DNA from: Candidatus Lindowbacteria bacterium RIFCSPLOWO2_12_FULL_62_27
Lineage (GTDB): Bacteria > Lindowbacteria > 2-12-FULL-62-27
Direction of reading: 5' to 3'
DNA length: 64,000 nt
Assembly (NCBI GenBank): GCA_001784175.1
Contig: MFPR01000004.1
Coordinates: 372,001-436,000 of the forward strand
The position numbers and the translations under genes were made by a program. Shown here one piece after another: positions 1-10,284 of the stretch (position 1 is its first letter; the number at the start of each line of letters is the position of its first letter). The notes beneath the pieces are model-generated. The model searched no databases. It saw only the letters and a list, made by a program, of their open reading frames with translations, and was not told where the DNA came from.

Positions 1-734
1 ACACAATGAGAGACACGGTCGAAAGCATCGATGTCGGCACCGACAAAAAGGGGGGCAGCATCGAAAGGATTTACTCCAAAAGTTTCCGGGATTTTTTTAG
101 CCGGACCTTTAAGTCCCTCGGAATCAAGATGGCAATGAATGAAATCCCGAAACTCAAGAGTCAATGGTTGAATGAAAGGCGGGCTGCTTGGATGAAGAAG
201 AATCCGGCAACGCCTGTGCCGAACCAGCGGGAACGTGCGTGGGAAGCATCATTTCCAAGACGTCTACAATTCGATATGGGCTATGGCGAAGACGTTGCGG
301 AGGTCAACCCCAAGAATGGCCCGTCGAGATTTGTTCGCGCCCAGCCTGTCAACGATCGGATTGAAGTTTGGACGAACGACGTCAGACAGGCGCAGATTCG
401 TACTGTGAAGAATCGGATTCTGTTTCGGCACATCCAGGACAATTCACCGCAGGGACGGACTCTTGAAAGAATTTTCCGGAGAAACGACATGATTCAGTTG
501 GATGCGGTTCAAAAAAGGGGGAGAAAAGGAATAACTGGAAAAAGTTACGAGGCCGGTGAATATATGGTCGTTAAAATCGAGAAAGGCGGAAAATTTACGG
601 CCGTTCCGGCGCACAGGGGGAAAGGCAGAGAAAATCAGCGCCAAGTTTCGCAGCGTGAAATCGCCAAACTGTGCGGGGTTTCGCTTTCTCCGAAAAGGCG
701 GAAGCCATCCCGCTCAACGAGCGAAAGCGGTTGA
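1..734 (+). CDS. cas9: C-terminal fragment (WED + PAM-interacting-like region) of a probable Cas9, type II-C-like; 5' end lies outside the window
   Basis: Frame is open from the window edge. Motif order matches the II-C Cas9 C-terminus as I recall it for NmeCas9: TMRDTVES (~HMETVKS), PRRLQF (~VKAVRV), NDRIEVW (~MVRVDVF), IFRRNDMIQL (~SLHPNDLVEV), then a basic tail. It lies upstream of cas1-cas2-cas4 and an array. RuvC/HNH are not visible. Confidence 0.7.
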   Translation, partial: TMRDTVESIDVGTDKKGGSIERIYSKSFRDFFSRTFKSLGIKMAMNEIPKLKSQWLNERRAAWMKKNPATPVPNQRERAWEASFPRRLQFDMGYGEDVAEVNPKNGPSRFVRAQPVNDRIEVWTNDVRQAQIRTVKNRILFRHIQDNSPQGRTLERIFRRNDMIQLDAVQKRGRKGITGKSYEAGEYMVVKIEKGGKFTAVPAHRGKGRENQRQVSQREIAKLCGVSLSPKRRKPSRSTSESG

Positions 735-907: not shown

Positions 908-1144
908 ATGCCGACGGTCTTAAGAAAGGGGCCGTATCGTTTTTTCTTTTTTGCCGGTGATCGCGGCGAGCCGCCGCACGTTCACGTTGAGCGTGACAAC
1001 AAGGTCGCCAAGTTTTGGCTGGAACCGGTTCGGTTGTGCGGGAGCGGGGGATTCTCACGGGCTGAAATTCGCCGGATACTCAAGTTGGTGTTCGCTTATG
1101 CGAGTGAATTGAAGGAGGCGTGGCATGCGTACTTCAACGGTTAG
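908..1144 (+). CDS. DUF4160 family protein (putative toxin of a DUF4160/DUF2442 TA pair)
   Basis: MPTVLR..PYRFFF..D..EPPHVHV...AKFWL family signature; GGAGG RBS. Confidence 0.85.
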   Translation: MPTVLRKGPYRFFFFAGDRGEPPHVHVERDNKVAKFWLEPVRLCGSGGFSRAEIRRILKLVFAYASELKEAWHAYFNG

Positions 1145-1454
1145 GACGGAAACGCCGCTTGCGGAAGACGTGACGCTGACGGCCGACACGATCCATGTCG
1201 ATTTGAGCGACGGCAGAACCATCTCCGCGCCGCTGGCGTGGTTTCCGAGGCTTCTAAACGCGTCGCAAAAGGAAAGAGACAACTGGCGGCTGATCGGCAA
1301 GGGACAGGGCCTGCATTGGGAAGACATCGACGAGGATATCAGCGTTGGGAATCTCCTGATGGGTCAGGCATCCGGCGAAAGTCAGCAGTCTTTCGAGAAG
1401 TGGCTCTCGGCAAGGAAACCCCGCCGTTCAACCTCACACGGACAGCGACGCTGA
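1125..1454 (+). CDS. DUF2442 family protein (putative antitoxin)
   Basis: V.LSDGR.IS.PLAWFPRL...G.GLHW.DIDEDIS signature; overlaps the DUF4160 gene. Confidence 0.85.
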   Translation: MRTSTVRTETPLAEDVTLTADTIHVDLSDGRTISAPLAWFPRLLNASQKERDNWRLIGKGQGLHWEDIDEDISVGNLLMGQASGESQQSFEKWLSARKPRRSTSHGQRR

Positions 1455-1845: not shown

Positions 1846-2292
1846 TTGGTAAAGACTGTTTTTATCGCGCACGACTATTATGAAATAGGGGGCCGAAAAA
1901 GGAAGTACCGGCGTCTTATATCAACAGCCCTCAAACATACCGGCTTTCGTCCCACCTATGCCGATCACGCCATCCAAAACGTTTCAATATTGAAGGAAAT
2001 CATTCGGAAAATTAGAAACGCCTCTTTCTGCATTTTGGACATCACAGGCCGCAAAAAAAGTACGGCGCTGAATCTGAACGTTCTTCTGGAACTCGGGATG
2101 GCCTATGGCGCCGGCAGGCCGGCCTTTCTGATCTACGAAGAGCGGAGTGTCCATCCATCCCTCATCAAGGAGATTTCCGACCTGGGAAATGAATTGCACT
2201 TTCCCTACCGCGGCCTTAACGCACTTCCGATTCTAATCAGAAAAACCATTCTCGACGTTGTAAGGAGAAGCCGTCCCCGAAAGGGGCGTTGA
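1846..2292 (+). CDS. TIR-like / nucleoside 2-deoxyribosyltransferase-like domain protein
   Basis: VFIAH...AD...I..I..ASFCILDIT...N.NVLLELGMAYG.GRP..LI...SDL motif with the conserved Glu (ELG); TTG start. Confidence 0.7.
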   Translation: MVKTVFIAHDYYEIGGRKRKYRRLISTALKHTGFRPTYADHAIQNVSILKEIIRKIRNASFCILDITGRKKSTALNLNVLLELGMAYGAGRPAFLIYEERSVHPSLIKEISDLGNELHFPYRGLNALPILIRKTILDVVRRSRPRKGR

Positions 2293-2308: not shown

Positions 2309-3487
2309 ATGCCCTTCTCCGACGCTCATCGCATCGAACCTCCCCCGCAGCAGATCAATTTGCTGACCGGCGAACCGGAAATGCCGTCCGCGCGGGTCGA
2401 ACATTTGCCGGTGGACGACGTCCCTTACACGCTGGAGGACGGCATCACGGTGGTGCAAAGCCCGTCGGGACTGACGGCGTCCATTTCGGGCAACGGCTGT
2501 CATGTCGGCAAACGAAGCGAGCGGCTGGTCATACGGAAGAAAGACGGCCGGGCGGTGTGGCAGATTCCGATGGCGCGCCTGCACGAAATCATCCTCGACG
2601 CGCGAGGCCTGTCGATCACGACCGATCTTCTGACGGCGCTGGCCGAACGGGGGATCCGCACCAGCATCATCGCGTTCAACGGCAAGCCGGTGGCGGAGAT
2701 CGCTTCGCCGCTTCTGACGGCCGTGGTCGAAACGCGCAAGGCGCAATTCGAGGCGCTGACCAACGGACGGGGACTGCGGCTCGCCAAGGCTGTTGTCGCC
2801 GGAAAAATCCGGAACCAACTGCGGCTTCTGAAATATTTCGGAAAATATATTTCCACTTCCCAGCCTGACCTGTTTTCCTCCCTGCAGGAGGACATCTCCG
2901 CAATGGATGACGCGCGGAGGGGGATAGAACAGGTCGCGGAAACCTCGCTCGACGAAACCCGCGCACAACTGATGGGCATCGAGGGACAGGCCGGGCAGAG
3001 GTATTGGTCCGCCGTCGGCCGGATCATCGGCGGGCGCGTACCGTTTCCGGGACGCACGCATCGCGGCGCATCGGATCCCGTCAACGTCATGCTGAATTTC
3101 GGATACGGCGTTTTGTATTCGCAAGTTTGGGGCGCGGTACATTTCGCGGGGCTGGAACCGTTCGCCGGATTTCTTCACACCGACCGGGCCGGCAAGCCCA
3201 GCCTCGTTTTCGACATGGTCGAGGAATTTCGCGCGCCGGTGGTCGACCGGACGGTCATTTCTATGGCGCAACTCGGCCAGGTGCGTGCGCTCAGGACGCC
3301 GGGAATGCTGGACGGCGATCTGAAAACGGAATTCCTGTCGAAACTCTTGGAACGCATCGACGGGACGGAATCCTTCGACGGCGGGAAATACAGAATTCGT
3401 TCGATTATTCAAAAACAATGCCGGCTGGCGGCGTCCTTCATTCGAGGCTCGATCGAGGAATATCGGCCGTTCCGGTTCAAGTGGTAG
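2309..3487 (+). CDS. cas1: CRISPR-associated endonuclease Cas1
   Basis: GKIRNQ, LMGIEG.A...YW, DPVN.MLNFGY, GL.P..GFLH, LVFDMVEEFR..VVDR. Confidence 0.97.
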   Translation: MPFSDAHRIEPPPQQINLLTGEPEMPSARVEHLPVDDVPYTLEDGITVVQSPSGLTASISGNGCHVGKRSERLVIRKKDGRAVWQIPMARLHEIILDARGLSITTDLLTALAERGIRTSIIAFNGKPVAEIASPLLTAVVETRKAQFEALTNGRGLRLAKAVVAGKIRNQLRLLKYFGKYISTSQPDLFSSLQEDISAMDDARRGIEQVAETSLDETRAQLMGIEGQAGQRYWSAVGRIIGGRVPFPGRTHRGASDPVNVMLNFGYGVLYSQVWGAVHFAGLEPFAGFLHTDRAGKPSLVFDMVEEFRAPVVDRTVISMAQLGQVRALRTPGMLDGDLKTEFLSKLLERIDGTESFDGGKYRIRSIIQKQCRLAASFIRGSIEEYRPFRFKW

Positions 3488-3491
3488 AACG

Positions 3492-3827
3492 ATGGCCGAC
3501 ATGCGCTGTCTCGTCGTCTATGACATCGAGGAGGACAAAGCGCGGACGAAAATCAGCGAGGCGTGCCTGGATTTTGGGCTGGAGAGAATTCAGATGAGCG
3601 CGTTTTGGGGACTCCTGTCGCGTACGCGCCAGCGCGAGCTCTATCACCGGATCAAGCGGCTTCTGGGGGATGGGTACGGGCGTTTCTTCATTCAGCCCAT
3701 TTGCGCGCACGACGAGGACACACGATTCATTCACGAACAGGGCGACCCCGGCGACCGGACGCTCCTGCGGTCGCTCATTGAGGAACAAAAGACGCGGGAT
3801 CAGGCGCGCGTCCTGAAATTCGAATGA
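3492..3827 (+). CDS. cas2: CRISPR-associated Cas2
   Basis: LVVYDI..DK.R.KI...C.DFGLERIQ.SAF; follows cas1. Confidence 0.95.
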   Translation: MADMRCLVVYDIEEDKARTKISEACLDFGLERIQMSAFWGLLSRTRQRELYHRIKRLLGDGYGRFFIQPICAHDEDTRFIHEQGDPGDRTLLRSLIEEQKTRDQARVLKFE

Positions 3828-4414
3828 CGCCGGCCGCTTCGGACATCGTCACGGTCAGCGATTTGAAACAGTTCGCCTTTTGCCCGCGCATCCCCTATTT
3901 TTCCAGAGTCATGCCGATCCGGCCTCCGGCCACGGAGCTGATGGAACGAGGTCAGCGGTTGGAGGAGGAATTTCGGCGGCTGGAGGTGCGGCGAAGCTTG
4001 GGCCGATACGGATGGGACCGGGCAACAAGACATTTCAGCGTATACGCGATGAGTGAATCATGCGGCATCGCCGGTCGGATCGATCTGGCGCTCGAACGCG
4101 ATGACGCCGTTGCCATCGTTGACGTGAAGGCGAGCGGGGGATTTGTCGGAGACAATCACCGGATGCAGGCGGCGGCGTATCAGGTATTGGCCGGCGAGCA
4201 TTTCGGCAAACCCTGTATTGGCGCGTTCATGTATTTTCTGGATCGCCGATGTGTGGAACGTCTGGAGCCGGACGCCGCATGGAACGAACGACTCCGGCGA
4301 GCAATAGACACCATTCGGGCCATGTCAACAACCCACGATTTCCCGCCCGCAACGGCACATCGCAAAGCCTGCGAGCAATGCGAATATCGCAATTTCTGCG
4401 GCGATGTATTCTGA
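3824..4414 (+). CDS. cas4: CRISPR-associated exonuclease Cas4
   Basis: N-terminal Cys (FCPR), GRID, VDVK, Q..AY, C-terminal C..C.Y...C Fe-S ligands. Confidence 0.95.
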   Translation: MTPAASDIVTVSDLKQFAFCPRIPYFSRVMPIRPPATELMERGQRLEEEFRRLEVRRSLGRYGWDRATRHFSVYAMSESCGIAGRIDLALERDDAVAIVDVKASGGFVGDNHRMQAAAYQVLAGEHFGKPCIGAFMYFLDRRCVERLEPDAAWNERLRRAIDTIRAMSTTHDFPPATAHRKACEQCEYRNFCGDVF

Positions 4415-4515
4415 TTTCGCAAATATCCCGGCAAATTTCGCAAGCTTGACGCTTGCGAAATGTGCCTCACTCATTCCGAACCCAACTCACACAGCTTCAT
4501 AACTGCGGAGCGGGA
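4415..4515. promoter_or_regulatory. CRISPR leader-like region with an 11-bp inverted repeat (4435-4445 / 4451-4461)
   Basis: Non-coding stretch between cas4 and the first repeat; ATTTCGCAAGC...GCTTGCGAAAT. Confidence 0.6.
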
Positions 4516-4769
4516 ATTGTAGTCCCGCTCAAAAAAAATTCAAGGGTGAAAGCAGATACTCGTCTCACAGAAGTCTCTGACAAATTTATTGTAGTCCCGC
4601 TCAAAAAAAATTCAAGGGTGAAAGCCATGGCCGCTCTCGCAAGCGGCGGGGGCCGCGGATTGTAGTCCCGCTCAAAAAAAATTCAAGGGTGAAAGTCACA
4701 ACATCCGTATGCGCTTGAATCCACTCTTTGATATTGTAGTCCCGCTCAAAAAAAATTCAAGGGTGAAAG
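4516..4769. CRISPR. CRISPR array: 4 identical 37-bp repeats ATTGTAGTCCCGCTCAAAAAAAATTCAAGGGTGAAAG and 3 spacers (35, 34, 37 bp)
   Basis: Repeats at 4516-4552, 4588-4624, 4659-4695, 4733-4769 with unique spacers; adjacent to cas genes. Confidence 0.98.
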
Positions 4770-4789
4770 ACGGGGGAACGGCGGATGGA

Positions 4790-4827
4790 CCCCCCTTTAT
4801 CCCCCCTTGTAAAGGGGGGAAAGAGGG
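4790..4827. repeat. REP-like palindrome / possible terminator between the array and the lysC 3' end
   Basis: TCCCCCCTT-GTA-AAGGGGGGA hairpin (4800-4820) with imperfect outer arms. Confidence 0.6.
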
Positions 4828-4840
4828 CGGTTATCCCCGG

Positions 4841-6112
4841 TCAGGCGCCGGCGGCGACGGGGGCTTGCCGGCCGAGTTCGAACGCGGCGTGGAGCCGGCG
4901 GACGGCCTCGTCGGCCTTGGACCGGCTGATGATGCAACTGACCTTGATTTCGCTGGTCGAGATCATCTCGATGTTGACGCCGGCCGCGGCCAGGGACTTG
5001 AACATCTTTGCGGCCACACCGGCATGGGACCGCATGCCGACGCCGACGATCGAGACTTTGGCCACGTCGTCCGAAAAGACAATGCTGCCGCCGCTCAGGT
5101 CTTTCAGCACCGGTTTCAGCCGCTCCACCGCGCGTTTAAGATCGGTGGAGGCGACGGTGAAGGCGATGTCGTTCTTGCCGATCTCGTGTTCCGACGAGGA
5201 CTGGACGATCATGTCGACGTTGATGTTGGATTCGGCCAGGCCGCCGAAGAGTTTCGCGGCGACGCCGGGGACGTCCGGCAGGTCAATGGCGGTGATCCGC
5301 GCCTGGTCCTTGTCGGCGGCCACGGCGCGGACAATGGGTCGTTCCATCATGGGTGTTTCTTCCTCCTCGATGATCCAACTGCCGGCGTTCCCGTTGAGGC
5401 TGGACCGCACGTGCAGGGGAATGTTGTATTTTTTGGCGAACTCGATCGACCGGTTCATCATGACCTTGGCGCCGAGCGAGGCCAGCTCGAGCATTTCGTC
5501 GAAATAAATCCGCTCGATCTTCCGCGCTTCCGGCACCACCCGCGGGTCGGCGGTGTAGATGCCGTCCACGTCCGTGTAGACCTCGCACACGTCCGCCTTG
5601 AGCGCGACCGCGAGGGCGACGGCCGTGGTGTCGGAACCGCCGCGGCCGAGGGTGGTGATGTCGTTGGAGGCGTCGAGCCCCTGGAATCCGGCGCAGACGG
5701 CGATGTTGCCGTTGGTGATTTCCTTCTGGAGCCGGGTGCCGTCGATTTCGACGATCCGCGCCTTGGTGTGGACGCTGTCGGTCCGGATGCCCAGTTGCGG
5801 CGCGAAAAACGCGGCGGCCTTCTCGCCTTCCGCCTGGATCGCCATTGCCAGAAGCGCGCTCGATATCTGTTCGCCGGCGCTCATGAGCAAATCCATCTCG
5901 CGGTCCGGCGGGTCCGCGTTGATTTTTTTTGAGAGATCGATCAGGTCGTCCGTCGTGTCGCCCATCGCCGACACCACCACCACGCAGCGGTTCCCCTCGC
6001 GCTTCTTGTCGATGATCCGCCGCGCCACGTTCTTCATCCGGTCGGGATTGGCGACCGAACTGCCGCCGAACTTCATGACGACGAGCGGCCGATGTTCTCG
6101 GTCGCCGGACAC
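4841..6112 (-). CDS. lysC: aspartate kinase
   Basis: VMKFGGSSV, VVSAMGDTTD, TLGRGGSDTTAV, ACT domains; GTG start inferred. Confidence 0.95.
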   Translation of the reverse strand: MSGDREHRPLVVMKFGGSSVANPDRMKNVARRIIDKKREGNRCVVVVSAMGDTTDDLIDLSKKINADPPDREMDLLMSAGEQISSALLAMAIQAEGEKAAAFFAPQLGIRTDSVHTKARIVEIDGTRLQKEITNGNIAVCAGFQGLDASNDITTLGRGGSDTTAVALAVALKADVCEVYTDVDGIYTADPRVVPEARKIERIYFDEMLELASLGAKVMMNRSIEFAKKYNIPLHVRSSLNGNAGSWIIEEEETPMMERPIVRAVAADKDQARITAIDLPDVPGVAAKLFGGLAESNINVDMIVQSSSEHEIGKNDIAFTVASTDLKRAVERLKPVLKDLSGGSIVFSDDVAKVSIVGVGMRSHAGVAAKMFKSLAAAGVNIEMISTSEIKVSCIISRSKADEAVRRLHAAFELGRQAPVAAGA

Positions 6113-6114
6113 GG

Positions 6115-7344
6115 CTAGAGGGCCTCCCGGGAATGGATGAATTTCTCCCGCAGGATCGTATGCGCCATGATCGGCCGCGCCGACCGGGCGGCCAGGCGCT
6201 CGGTGAATCGCGGCATGCCCCGCGTCAAAGGATGCTTCGAATCCCAGATCACATACGGCACCGGGTCGCTCGTGTGCGTGCCGATCGAACACGGGGTCGG
6301 ATGGTCCGGCATGGCGAGCACCCGGACGCGGTCGGGCCACCGGGACACTTCGGCCAGAATCGGCGCCACGATCTTGTGGTCGATCACTTCGATCATCTTT
6401 TTCTTCATGGCCGCGTTCCGGTCGTGACCCGCCTCGTCCGGCGCCTCGATGTGAAGGTACACCATCTCCTTCTGTTTCAGCTCCCGCAGCGCCGCCGTCC
6501 GCTTCTCGTCAAAGTCCGTGTCGTAATAGCCGGTGGCCCGCTTCAGGTTCACAACCGTCAGACCCACCAGCTTGCCCAGGCCGCGCACGAGGTCCACGCC
6601 GGAAACGACCGCGCCCGATACCCCGAACCGCTCGCGCAGCGTCGGAAGGCGCTTGCCCTCGCCCTGCGCCCACAGCCACATCATGTTCGCGGGACGCTTC
6701 CGGCCGCGGTTGAACGGATGCGCCTCCAGAACCTTTTGGGTTTTCATCATGATCTCCACATGCGGCAGGCTCGCGTACGGCTTCAGATGCTGCTGCACGT
6801 CCGAGCCGACCAGATCGTGCGGGCCGTCGAGATGCACCGACAGAAGCCGCGCCCGAAACGGCGCCGGCGCGCGCCAAGCCAGGGTGTGGCGGTAGCTCAC
6901 CCCGGTGTAGAGCCGCGCCTGGCTGCCCTCCAGCGATCCGTTCAGAACCTCGCGATTGACGACGGCAAGAAGCTTCTGGGCCTCTCGCGTTCCGATGTGG
7001 CCGGCGCAGTGGTCGACGATGAGGCCGTTCTTGACCGTGATGAAATTCGCGCGGAAATACAGCGTGTCGGGGCGCGCCGGAAGGCCGATCGACGCGGCCT
7101 CGATGGAGCCGCGCTGAAGCGGATACCGCGCGGGATCAAGTCCGAGAATCGACAGGTTCGCCGCGTCGCTGCCGGGCGTCACGCCCTTGGGAACGGTCCG
7201 GGCAAGGCCGACCGCCCCCTCGCGGGCCAGCCGGTCGAATCCGGGCGTCCGCGCAGCTTCAAGGGGAGTCTTGTTTCCGAGCGAGGGGACCGGTCGGTCC
7301 GCCATGCCGTCTGGAACAATAATCAGATACTTGGTCTTCAACAA
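6115..7344 (-). CDS. apgM: cofactor-independent phosphoglycerate mutase (ApgM family)
   Basis: DGMAD.P...LG.KTPLEAA.TP, GSD.ANLS, HIEAPDEAGH, DHPTP. Confidence 0.85.
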   Translation of the reverse strand: MLKTKYLIIVPDGMADRPVPSLGNKTPLEAARTPGFDRLAREGAVGLARTVPKGVTPGSDAANLSILGLDPARYPLQRGSIEAASIGLPARPDTLYFRANFITVKNGLIVDHCAGHIGTREAQKLLAVVNREVLNGSLEGSQARLYTGVSYRHTLAWRAPAPFRARLLSVHLDGPHDLVGSDVQQHLKPYASLPHVEIMMKTQKVLEAHPFNRGRKRPANMMWLWAQGEGKRLPTLRERFGVSGAVVSGVDLVRGLGKLVGLTVVNLKRATGYYDTDFDEKRTAALRELKQKEMVYLHIEAPDEAGHDRNAAMKKKMIEVIDHKIVAPILAEVSRWPDRVRVLAMPDHPTPCSIGTHTSDPVPYVIWDSKHPLTRGMPRFTERLAARSARPIMAHTILREKFIHSREAL

Positions 7345-8899: not shown

Positions 8900-10284
8900 G
8901 GCGCGGCGCGGCCGGCGACCGGATAGACGCAGTTGCGGATGGAGAAGCGCGCCGCGGGCCGGGCGTTGCCGCTTTTTTTCCGTCCCCCGAACGGCAGCCG
9001 CCCGGAGGCGCCGATCGTGCCGACATTCCAGTTCACGATCCCGTGCGTGGTTTCGTTCAGCATTTTTTCAAAGACGGGCCGGCGGCGCGTGAATACGGAA
9101 AGCGCCAGCCCGTAGTCCGTGTCCTCGACGCGCGCGATGGCTTCGGCCGCGTCGCCAAACGGATACAGCCCGACTTCCGGAACGAACAACTCCTCCGACG
9201 TGTACCGGCGCCGGCCCGGATAGCGGTCGAACCGGTGCGCGGACAGCCGCACGAAGTGACCGCGCGCCGTGTCGAATCGGCCGCCGGCCAGCAGGGGCCG
9301 GCCGCCCAGCCGGCGCGCTTCCCGGATCGCCGATTCGGCCCGGCACGCGGCGTCGGCCGAAATCAGCGGGCCGCAAAAAATTTCCGGATCGGCCGGGTCG
9401 CCCACTTGAAACGTTCGGGCCAGGGAAACAAATTTATCGCAAAATTCATCGAACGCCCCCCGCTCGACAAATATCCTGGACGTCGACGTGCATCGCTGGC
9501 CCGCCGTCGCAAACGCGCTCTGCGCGCATTCCGCGGCGGCCTGCGACAGGTCCGCGTCGGCGAACACGACCGCCGCGTTTTTTCCGCCCATCTCGAGCGC
9601 CAGCAGTTTGTCCGGCGGATCGTGCGCGATCGATTTCAGGCGCTGCCCCACGGCATAGGAACCCGTGAACAGGACCGCCGACACGTCCGGATGGGCCGCC
9701 AGACGCTCGCCCACGGCGCCCGGACCGCACACGACGTTCAACACGCCGCGCGGGAAACCGGCGCGGGCCGCGCAGTCCGCGTAGAGAAGACCGGTCCGGC
9801 AGGATTTGTCCGAGGGCTTGAACACCACCGTGTTTCCCGCGAGAAGCGCCGGCACGATGTGGCCCTGCGGCAGATGCAGAGGGAAATTGAACGGCCCCAG
9901 CACCGCGCAGACGCCGTAGGGCCGATACACGCAATAGGCGTCCGGTCCGGCGGCGGGCGCGGCCAACTCCAATTTGGCGGTTTCGAGTGTGACATCGATT
10001 TTTGACAGGAGAAGCTGCGCCTCCTCTCTGGCCTCCCGGATCGCCTTCCCGGTTTCCCTGCAGATCGACCAGGCAAGCGCGTCGCCTTGCCGGGCGAGAA
10101 TCTGCCGGAACCTGACCAGCGCGCGAACCCGGTGCGCCGGCGGCAGACACGACCACGCCCCAAATGTTTTTCGCGCCCGCGCCACCGCCGCGTCGGCGGC
10201 CGGCAGGCTCCATCGAAACACGCCGATGCGATCGGAGAGGTTCGCCGGATTGACCGACTGAATCTCTCCGTGTCCCGCCGGCAT
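8896..10284 (-). CDS. astD: aldehyde dehydrogenase, succinylglutamate-semialdehyde dehydrogenase-like
   Basis: GPFNFPLHLP.GHIVPALLAGNTVVFKPS, LEMGGKN, GQRCTS, GAS..LPFGG...SGN.RP; next to astA. Confidence 0.8.
   Translation of the reverse strand: MPAGHGEIQSVNPANLSDRIGVFRWSLPAADAAVARARKTFGAWSCLPPAHRVRALVRFRQILARQGDALAWSICRETGKAIREAREEAQLLLSKIDVTLETAKLELAAPAAGPDAYCVYRPYGVCAVLGPFNFPLHLPQGHIVPALLAGNTVVFKPSDKSCRTGLLYADCAARAGFPRGVLNVVCGPGAVGERLAAHPDVSAVLFTGSYAVGQRLKSIAHDPPDKLLALEMGGKNAAVVFADADLSQAAAECAQSAFATAGQRCTSTSRIFVERGAFDEFCDKFVSLARTFQVGDPADPEIFCGPLISADAACRAESAIREARRLGGRPLLAGGRFDTARGHFVRLSAHRFDRYPGRRRYTSEELFVPEVGLYPFGDAAEAIARVEDTDYGLALSVFTRRRPVFEKMLNETTHGIVNWNVGTIGASGRLPFGGRKKSGNARPAARFSIRNCVYPVAGRAAP

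Follow-up and report, generated by a model that had tools for sequence, protein, structure and literature searches.

The closest described counterparts of the array analysed here belong to type II-C CRISPR systems, in which, according to the accessible parts of the papers cited throughout, arrays converge on the cas genes and run antisense to them, a -10 box (gnTAnaaT) stands at the 3' end of the repeat, and the proximal repeat decays (PMC4607530). In these systems the CRISPR RNA (crRNA) starts at the 5th or 6th spacer nucleotide (nt) (PMC3656092, PMC12477760), new spacers are taken up by way of the last repeat (PMC12080349, PMC12638026), and the repeat ends in TACAAT in Neisseria lactamica and in GGTAAAAT in Campylobacter jejuni (PMC4607530, PMC3656092). 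The array in question occupies positions 4516-4769 of a 64,000-nt stretch of contig MFPR01000004.1 (positions 372,001 to 436,000, forward strand; assembly GCA_001784175.1) of Candidatus Lindowbacteria bacterium RIFCSPLOWO2_12_FULL_62_27; "the window" denotes this whole stretch, and negative window positions lie upstream of its first letter. A sequence-only reading of the window had likened the repeats to the promoter-bearing repeats of Neisseria II-C arrays, and the precedent on which it drew is real (PMC4607530, PMC3656092, PMC12477760). The array is probably a II-C-like self-promoting array within a type II-D system; the layout itself is known from II-C, and its occurrence in a II-D system would be the new part.

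Subtype II-D is defined by the effector Cas9d together with a cas1-cas2-cas4 module, and the processing of its precursor crRNA has been left open, since DPANN hosts lack ribonuclease III (RNase III) (PMC12669027, the 2025 classification paper). The Cas9d papers, in their accessible parts, use engineered single guide RNAs, and "promoter" there refers solely to expression constructs; no description of natural crRNA starts or of repeat promoters was found in the main-text passages of these papers, supplements aside, and no statement on II-D repeat promoters, or on the reading of II-D arrays from the trailer end, was found in the accessible Cas9d, repeat-promoter and classification literature.

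Promoter-like motifs within the repeats

The array consists of four identical 37-nt repeats separated by three spacers (Table 1). On the minus strand, each repeat opens with a 14-nt handle (nt 1-14) and ends in TACAAT (nt 32-37, the terminal six bases); TTGAAT lies at nt 10-15, preceded by 9 nt and separated from TACAAT by 16 nt, and a T8 tract (nt 15-22) begins after 14 nt of repeat, its first T being the last base of the -35 hexamer. These motifs are exactly those given by the sequence-only reading. Its description of them as a complete sigma70 promoter stands in part: a promoter match is present in every repeat, and it is a moderate one (4/6 for the -35, 5/6 for the -10, spacing 16), short of a complete consensus.

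A promoter-consensus scan of positions 4300-5000 returned 5 sites, against 0.2 +/- 0.5 in shuffles, namely the four minus-strand repeat sites, each with 9/12 matches and without a TG extension, and one unrelated plus-strand site; beyond the four repeat sites, no minus-strand promoter-like site was found in this interval. As the four are one sequence in four copies, they were counted as one event. When the repeat was shuffled with its composition preserved (n = 200,000), such a site arose in 1.1% of shuffles on the same strand and in 2.2% on either strand, with a site ending within the last 2 nt in 0.26%, and random 37-mers at the composition of the genome (61% G+C) contained a site on either strand in 0.2%. 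A chance origin of the match is unlikely, though not to an extreme degree.

The best explanation of the repeat sequence, and on the whole a likely one, is that each repeat works as a promoter. Under this proposal, crRNAs would be minus-strand transcripts, running antisense to cas9-cas1-cas2-cas4, from a sigma70-type promoter (TTGAAT, 16 nt, TACAAT) at the 3' end of every repeat; polymerase would start about 5-8 nt into the following spacer, giving a primary crRNA with a 5'-triphosphate and a guide of about 27-31 nt, and the transcript would continue into the next repeat. There, the crRNA 3' end would form in or just past U8, which begins at the end of the duplex with the trans-activating crRNA (tracrRNA), most likely as its single-stranded, U-rich tail is trimmed or cleaved, and less likely by pausing or termination at the U-tract. 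The tracrRNA would likewise be a primary transcript, started at a promoter of its own directly 5' of cas9, and new spacers would enter at the cas4-side flank, the transcription-downstream end of the array.

Assignment to type II-D

On its gene content, the CRISPR system is assigned to type II-D and not II-C, because the Cas9d effector and the cas1-cas2-cas4 module match the published definition, as far as the accessible text gives it (PMC12669027). The whole Cas9d protein (P0001; about 1035-1067 amino acids (aa), depending on the start chosen) scores 452 bits against the NCBIfam Cas9d model NF049971 (cut-off 375), and 81 bits against the generic Cas9 model, under the cut-off of 100; its Pfam matches are RRXRR and three HNH models. 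In an alignment of 22 homologues, P0001 residues D45, H595, N618, H747 and D750 fall in invariant or nearly invariant columns, and these are the candidate RuvC/HNH catalytic residues. Cas1 scores 73 bits against the type II Cas1 model, hence under threshold (cut-off 120). A second genome, G002, which belongs to another genus of the same family and carries an identical repeat, encodes a Cas9d that scores under the family cut-off.

tracrRNA and the transcribed strand

An exact 14-nt anti-repeat lies on the plus (cas9) strand at 9412-9425 of locus L002 (window -2588 to -2575), about 190 nt 5' of the cas9 ATG, and complements nt 1-14 of the minus-strand repeat. In a duplex scan of both strands over 10.5 kilobases around the locus, no other sequence beyond the array itself paired strongly with the repeat (-22.9 kcal/mol for the anti-repeat). 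Related loci (n = 54) were fetched with an alignment of Cas9d homologues, which was required as the query, a search of the genome contigs with the single Cas9d protein having recovered no relatives. In the list of these loci, read by eye, 49 of the 54 have a cas9-strand anti-repeat followed at once by a scaffold that opens with a conserved motif, 120-250 nt before cas9; the five loci outside this count are L013, L014, L037, L039 and L049, of which L013 does carry a version of the motif that differs at one base. At least 7 handle variants occur among the lineages, this one included, each paired with its own matching anti-repeat.

The distinct tracrRNA loci (n = 32) align over about 170 nt, several of them with T-rich ends beyond the last hairpin, and the alignment contains G-U pairs that the other strand would make A-C, plus a few compensatory pairs; RNAalifold, run on the gappy alignment of 407 columns, gave only 12 consensus pairs. 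By the orientation rule for type II systems, the tracrRNA has its anti-repeat 5' and its scaffold 3', and the spacer-adjacent base of the repeat is paired (accessible text of PMC6546382). Because of the anti-repeat geometry under this rule, together with the repeat/anti-repeat covariation among relatives, the crRNA strand is very probably the minus strand, which runs antisense to the cas genes. The same two lines of evidence lend good support to the earlier proposal of array transcription running counter to the cas genes.

Transcription of the plus strand, from a leader on the cas4 side or by read-through from the cas operon, would make the minus-strand motifs irrelevant. The cas4-side flank is A+T-richer and conserved, as a leader would be, and on the plus strand the repeat closes with GAAAG, a feature that common tools for orienting arrays take as "forward". 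With that orientation, however, pairing with the anti-repeat would fall at the repeat's 3' end, beside the following spacer, unlike in Cas9 guides (PMC6546382, accessible text); moreover, the tracrRNA scaffold, its -10 box and the T-rich ends all lie on the cas9 strand, with the scaffold 3' of the anti-repeat, and the consensus scan found no plus-strand promoter-like site in the leader. Plus-strand transcription can be given very little credence.

With the minus strand as the crRNA strand, the start of the partner RNA bears on the length of the helix. In 24/32 distinct tracrRNA loci, the first base of a TANNNT hexamer lies 25-27 nt upstream of the junction between anti-repeat and scaffold, and other positions in the 70 nt upstream of the junction have at most 2 such hexamers, excepting the TAGAGT of the anti-repeat at -11. 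Both these hexamers and, at the usual distance of 7 nt, the -10 of this locus, which ends at L002 9406 (Table 1), would put the tracrRNA start at the first anti-repeat base. Such a start would limit the crRNA:tracrRNA helix to 13-14 bp with a flush tracrRNA 5' end, T8 beginning where the pairing ends, and a helix of this length and end seems a poor substrate for RNase III. The tracrRNA -10 boxes serve as a positive control, in that the partner RNA appears to be driven by sigma70-like -10 boxes in these hosts.

Further features were seen around the tracrRNA genes. A search of the tracrRNA region against Rfam gave no family above threshold, and the sub-threshold matches, which are microRNA-like, fall on a palindrome of about 145 bp just upstream of the tracrRNA promoter (L002 9197-9342; window -2803 to -2658), whose termini, ...TAATTGAAAG and its reverse complement, resemble the repeat end. 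In G002 (L007 9448-9520), the tracrRNA promoter and anti-repeat match those of the present genome exactly, and the scaffold right after the junction is without the conserved AG(A/G)CGCC. In a Nitrospirae locus (L050 1-310), an antisense array lies upstream of cas9, and the tracrRNA anti-repeat follows a decayed repeat in register, like a terminal repeat; this arrangement fits anti-repeats having arisen from repeats.

Conservation of the terminal -10 box

Seventeen distinct full-length repeats of the family, obtained with a purpose-written array finder plus two added arrays, were each oriented by its anti-repeat. Left out of this set were L028 (26-nt consensus only), L047 (partial, 2 copies), L049 (2-copy match, probably chance), the duplicates L011, L041, L025, L053 and L009, and L008 (another family). 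A -10 box (at least 5/6 matches, with A2 and T6) ending no more than 8 nt from the repeat 3' end is present on the crRNA strand in 10/17 repeats and on the opposite strand in 0/17, the expectation from shuffles being 0.5. Each of the ten hexamers reaches the final base of its repeat, and position 3 is their only point of difference (TACAAT in seven, TATAAT in one, TAAAAT in two), and weaker hexamers ending 7 nt from the repeat end are found in L060 and L050.

The repeat of L059 (13896-14225) has no terminal -10, and carries a perfect extended -10, TGGTATAAT, at nt 10-18 of the crRNA strand. The L008 array of G002 was considered as a second promoter example and dropped, since its anti-repeat puts the crRNA on the strand opposite to the promoter-like motif; this false lead shows that such motifs arise by chance. 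L008 (1054-1098 and 5496-5859; contig C122) is a second, different Cas9 locus, with a 36-nt repeat, 30-nt spacers, an anti-repeat (about 25 nt) directly 5' of cas9, and an array read in the sense direction.

Array polarity and leader

Among the ten arrays that have a deviant end repeat, this repeat stands at the transcription-upstream end in nine (L007, L019, L024, L028, L042, L013, L051, L055 and L050); the exception, L056, is a rearranged locus whose array abuts a truncated cas9. The decayed repeats of L007 (G002) and L042 have kept the -10 half and lost the handle half.

Judged from its sequence, the cas4-side flank is most likely the acquisition leader. Between this genome and G002, about 93 of its 101 nt are identical (about 92%, and 95% within the final 60 nt), compared with about 87% in the neighbouring end of the cas4 coding sequence (all by hand count), and the far, distal flanks of the two arrays are unrelated. 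With the leader at the transcription-downstream end, a leader promoter would be unable to serve the array, which would explain why the repeats carry promoters of their own. Spacers shared between arrays were uninformative as evidence of polarity, sharing being seen only among duplicate records. At the leader-repeat junction (4508-4537), a G+C-rich hairpin of 8 bp holds the -10 hexamer in its loop (fold z = -2.4); in G002 it has 7 bp.

Proposed repeat promoters and possible incidental promoter likeness

Several observations weigh against working repeat promoters. The bases directly before TACAAT are A and C, not the "gn" or "TGn" extension (gnTAnaaT) of II-C repeat promoters. The -35, which lies within the tracrRNA-pairing handle, is confined to this repeat and its identical counterpart in G002; the remaining 16 distinct repeats fail even an 8/12 test. 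Four sense arrays upstream of cas9 (L013, L036, L051 and L055) have a terminal TGAAAT or TGTAAT, in which the essential A2 is missing; a loose TANNNT test fails to separate the strands (12/17 on the crRNA strand vs 9/17 on the other), through the TAGAGT of the handle; and the relatives are related by ancestry, so that the 10/17 are not ten independent events. This array is itself without a decayed repeat, its polarity being taken from G002 and from relatives further off. The leader-side end of the repeat, the site of the first cut by Cas1-Cas2, coincides with the terminal hexamer, whose conservation may reflect integration rather than transcription. Finally, an RNase III gene is present in the genome, and classical processing is thus possible, and the system may be idle, for the reasons given below.

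Alternatively, the promoter likeness may be incidental, a reading that is possible but not likely. The plus-strand ATTGTA would then be the leader-side recognition site of Cas1-Cas2-Cas4 and the -35 a by-product of drift in the handle, and crRNA precursors would come from outside the array, by read-through from the aspartokinase gene or from a weak promoter beyond 4770, to be cut by RNase III or another RNase. The position of the hexamer exactly at the leader-repeat junction, the lineage-specific -35, the encoded RNase III and the sense-type arrays without a valid -10 all suit it, as does the aspartokinase gene, the only nearby source of external minus-strand transcription into the array, which lies on the same strand and has no canonical terminator between its end and the array. 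Under such a reading, however, the hexamer would not be expected to vary only at the position best tolerated by -10 boxes, nor the decayed upstream repeats to have lost their handle half and retained the -10 half; the distal flank differs between this genome and G002, which makes a fixed promoter outside the array unlikely; and the short, flush helix would serve RNase III poorly.

The U8 tract and crRNA 3' ends

For crRNAs started at repeat promoters, it had been proposed that the U8 run could set the 3' end and make each unit nearly self-contained. As a self-sufficient signal the run found no support: no hairpin precedes it, the scan of 4300-5000 called 0 terminator-like sites, including at the palindrome of 4790-4830, and folds of the three predicted primary transcripts showed no consistent hairpin at the U-run and were no better than shuffles (z = 0.08, -1.30 and 0.77). 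A T run (at least 3 T, within nt 11-24) is present in 10/11 distinct antisense repeats (L041 being counted as a duplicate of L010), with only 3-4 T in the relatives, and sense-type repeats have no such run after the handle.

It is unlikely that U8 is the 3'-end signal in the strict sense, with transcription from each repeat promoter stopping at the U-tract of the next repeat and the array forming a series of promoter-guide-handle-terminator cassettes. The start of T8 at nt 15, exactly where anti-repeat pairing ends, the recurrence of the T run in the antisense repeats and its identity in two genera are what such cassettes would show; the missing hairpin, the shuffle-like folds, the shorter runs of relatives and the lack of a run in sense-type repeats speak against them, and the A/T run could instead be a mid-repeat integrase anchor or a promoter spacer.

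Because U8 starts at the first unpaired base after the tracrRNA helix, it fits a trimmed single-stranded tail or, more speculatively, a terminator acting in trans. In the latter case, which is quite improbable, the primary 5' end of the tracrRNA would anneal to the nascent crRNA along its 14-nt handle, and the helix and U8 would together make an intermolecular intrinsic terminator; oligonucleotides are able to replace a terminator hairpin in vitro. If true, transcription would define both crRNA ends without any RNase III step, and backwards-read self-promoting arrays would be suggested as ancestral to Cas9 systems. If true across II-D in a shorter form (3-4 U), it would answer how guides mature in hosts that lack RNase III (the question raised in the accessible text of PMC12669027).

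Activity of the system

The system may be idle, given that it has only 3 spacers, that one of them perfectly matches a chromosomal gene of a cobalamin operon, and that unrelated genes (the DUF2442 and TIR-like open reading frames (ORFs)) stand between cas9 and cas1; the G002 array, moreover, has 2 full repeats and one decayed repeat, and its tracrRNA is without part of the conserved scaffold. That the system is decaying or silenced, so that promoter and U-tract are not now under selection, is nevertheless rather improbable: the four repeats are all identical, the cas9d, cas1, cas2 and cas4 frames are open, family-invariant residues are retained (e.g. P0001 D45, H595, H747 and D750), and repeat and leader are conserved across two genera.

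The self-match is that of spacer 2, which is identical over 34/34 nt to contig C20 107614-107647 of the same genome (L063 10614-10647), within a gene for a class I/II aminotransferase whose neighbours are CobQ, CobS, CobT, CobU and CbiB genes; the match could reflect self-targeting, a tolerated site without a protospacer-adjacent motif (PAM), or an assembly from a mixed population. The 3' flank of the target, in the sense of a minus-strand crRNA, is CGG, which suits the NGG of some Cas9d enzymes and not the NRC of the lineage of about 950 aa, as given in the accessible Cas9d text. A PAM taken from this match was set aside as strand evidence, a single site being undecisive. No protospacers were found for the three spacer cores in the scanned viral contigs.

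Locus organisation

The features of the locus are collected in Table 1. Between cas9d and cas1 lie a DUF2442 gene (72 bits; window 1125-1454) and a 148-aa ORF (window 1846-2292), the latter with a marginal match to a CAP12/Pycsar-type TIR model (26.1 bits, cut-off 24.7), and G002 likewise has two small ORFs at the corresponding place between its cas genes. G/C-rich palindromes similar to each other flank the tracrRNA-cas-array block on both sides (window 4790-4830 and L002 9005-9050); the 19-nt core pattern of the palindrome occurs 14 times in the genome, and these elements may be repetitive extragenic palindrome (REP)-like elements or insulators.

Table 1. Features of the II-D locus, in window coordinates unless L002 is given; element positions within repeats are listed in the direction of minus-strand transcription.
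Feature	Position	Strand	Remarks
tracrRNA promoter	L002 9378-9406	+	GTGACA-17-TATGAT, 10/12 matches
cas9d, 3' part	3-734	+	gene starts upstream of window, at about L002 9603 (window -2397)
cas1	2309-3487	+	PF01867, E = 1.4e-69; TIGR00287, 233.9 bits
cas2	3492-3827	+	PF09827; TIGR01573
cas4	3824-4414	+	TIGR00372, 96 bits (cut-off 65); PF01930 and PF12705
cas4-side flank	4415-4515		likely acquisition leader, transcription-downstream end; last 8 nt complement repeat nt 23-30
Repeat 1	4516-4552	-	handle 4552-4539, -35 4543-4538, T8 4538-4531, -10 4521-4516; last in transcription order, leader-adjacent
Spacer 1	4553-4587	-	35 nt; start from repeat 2 promoter predicted near 4582-4580, from the -10 position and II-C precedents
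Repeat 2	4588-4624	-	handle 4624-4611, -35 4615-4610, T8 4610-4603, -10 4593-4588
Spacer 2	4625-4658	-	34 nt; start predicted near 4653-4651
Repeat 3	4659-4695	-	handle 4695-4682, -35 4686-4681, T8 4681-4674, -10 4664-4659
Spacer 3	4696-4732	-	37 nt; start predicted near 4727-4725
Repeat 4	4733-4769	-	handle 4769-4756, -35 4760-4755, T8 4755-4748, -10 4738-4733; first in transcription order, "extra" repeat
G/C-rich palindromic element	4790-4830		between aspartokinase gene and array; without T run; possible insulator
Aspartokinase gene	4841-6340	-	PF00696 and ACT domains; converges on array, ends 71 nt away

Implications

Cas9d enzymes, which form a deep branch of the Cas9 tree, are under development as compact genome editors. 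If II-D arrays are read antisense from repeat promoters, the native ends of their guides would be predictable from sequence alone, and the assignment of orientation, spacer targets and PAMs in II-D would have to follow the anti-repeat, not leader or repeat rules; the II-C layout would also no longer be peculiar to one subtype. In practical terms the gain is modest, and II-C offers a clear precedent for the mechanism. The locus makes the open point of II-D guide biogenesis directly testable.

Comparison with known systems

In the II-C systems of Neisseria meningitidis and C. jejuni, as here, the array is placed downstream of the cas genes and transcribed in antisense to them, a -10 box (TACAAT in this locus) ends the repeat on the crRNA strand, and the transcription-upstream repeat decays, which for this system is seen in the arrays of relatives. 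The locus differs from II-C in its Cas9d effector, in the cas4 of its adaptation module, in a Cas1 that falls under the type II Cas1 cut-off, and in a tracrRNA with a large scaffold directly 5' of cas9; in place of the g/TG extension its repeat has a -35, and T8 follows the handle. The C. jejuni duplex is 24 nt long (accessible text of PMC4607530), whereas that of this locus would be 13-14 bp with a predicted flush tracrRNA 5' end. With intrinsic (Rho-independent) terminators the repeat shares a run of 8 U, and it lacks their G+C-rich hairpin in cis, the sole stable helix that ends at the U-run being intermolecular, with the tracrRNA.

Among the published II-D systems, the effector family, with its RRXRR and HNH matches, and the long tracrRNA scaffold 3' of the anti-repeat are those of Cas9d-MG34-1, MG102-2, NsCas9d and the Deltaproteobacteria Cas9d. 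The duplexes published for II-D, as far as the accessible text gives them, measure 17-19 bp, compared with 14 bp here. From the same accessible text, cas1, cas2 and cas4 are present in some characterised II-D loci, as they are in this one, and the NsCas9d locus resembles it further in having spacers of about 37 nt and four repeats.

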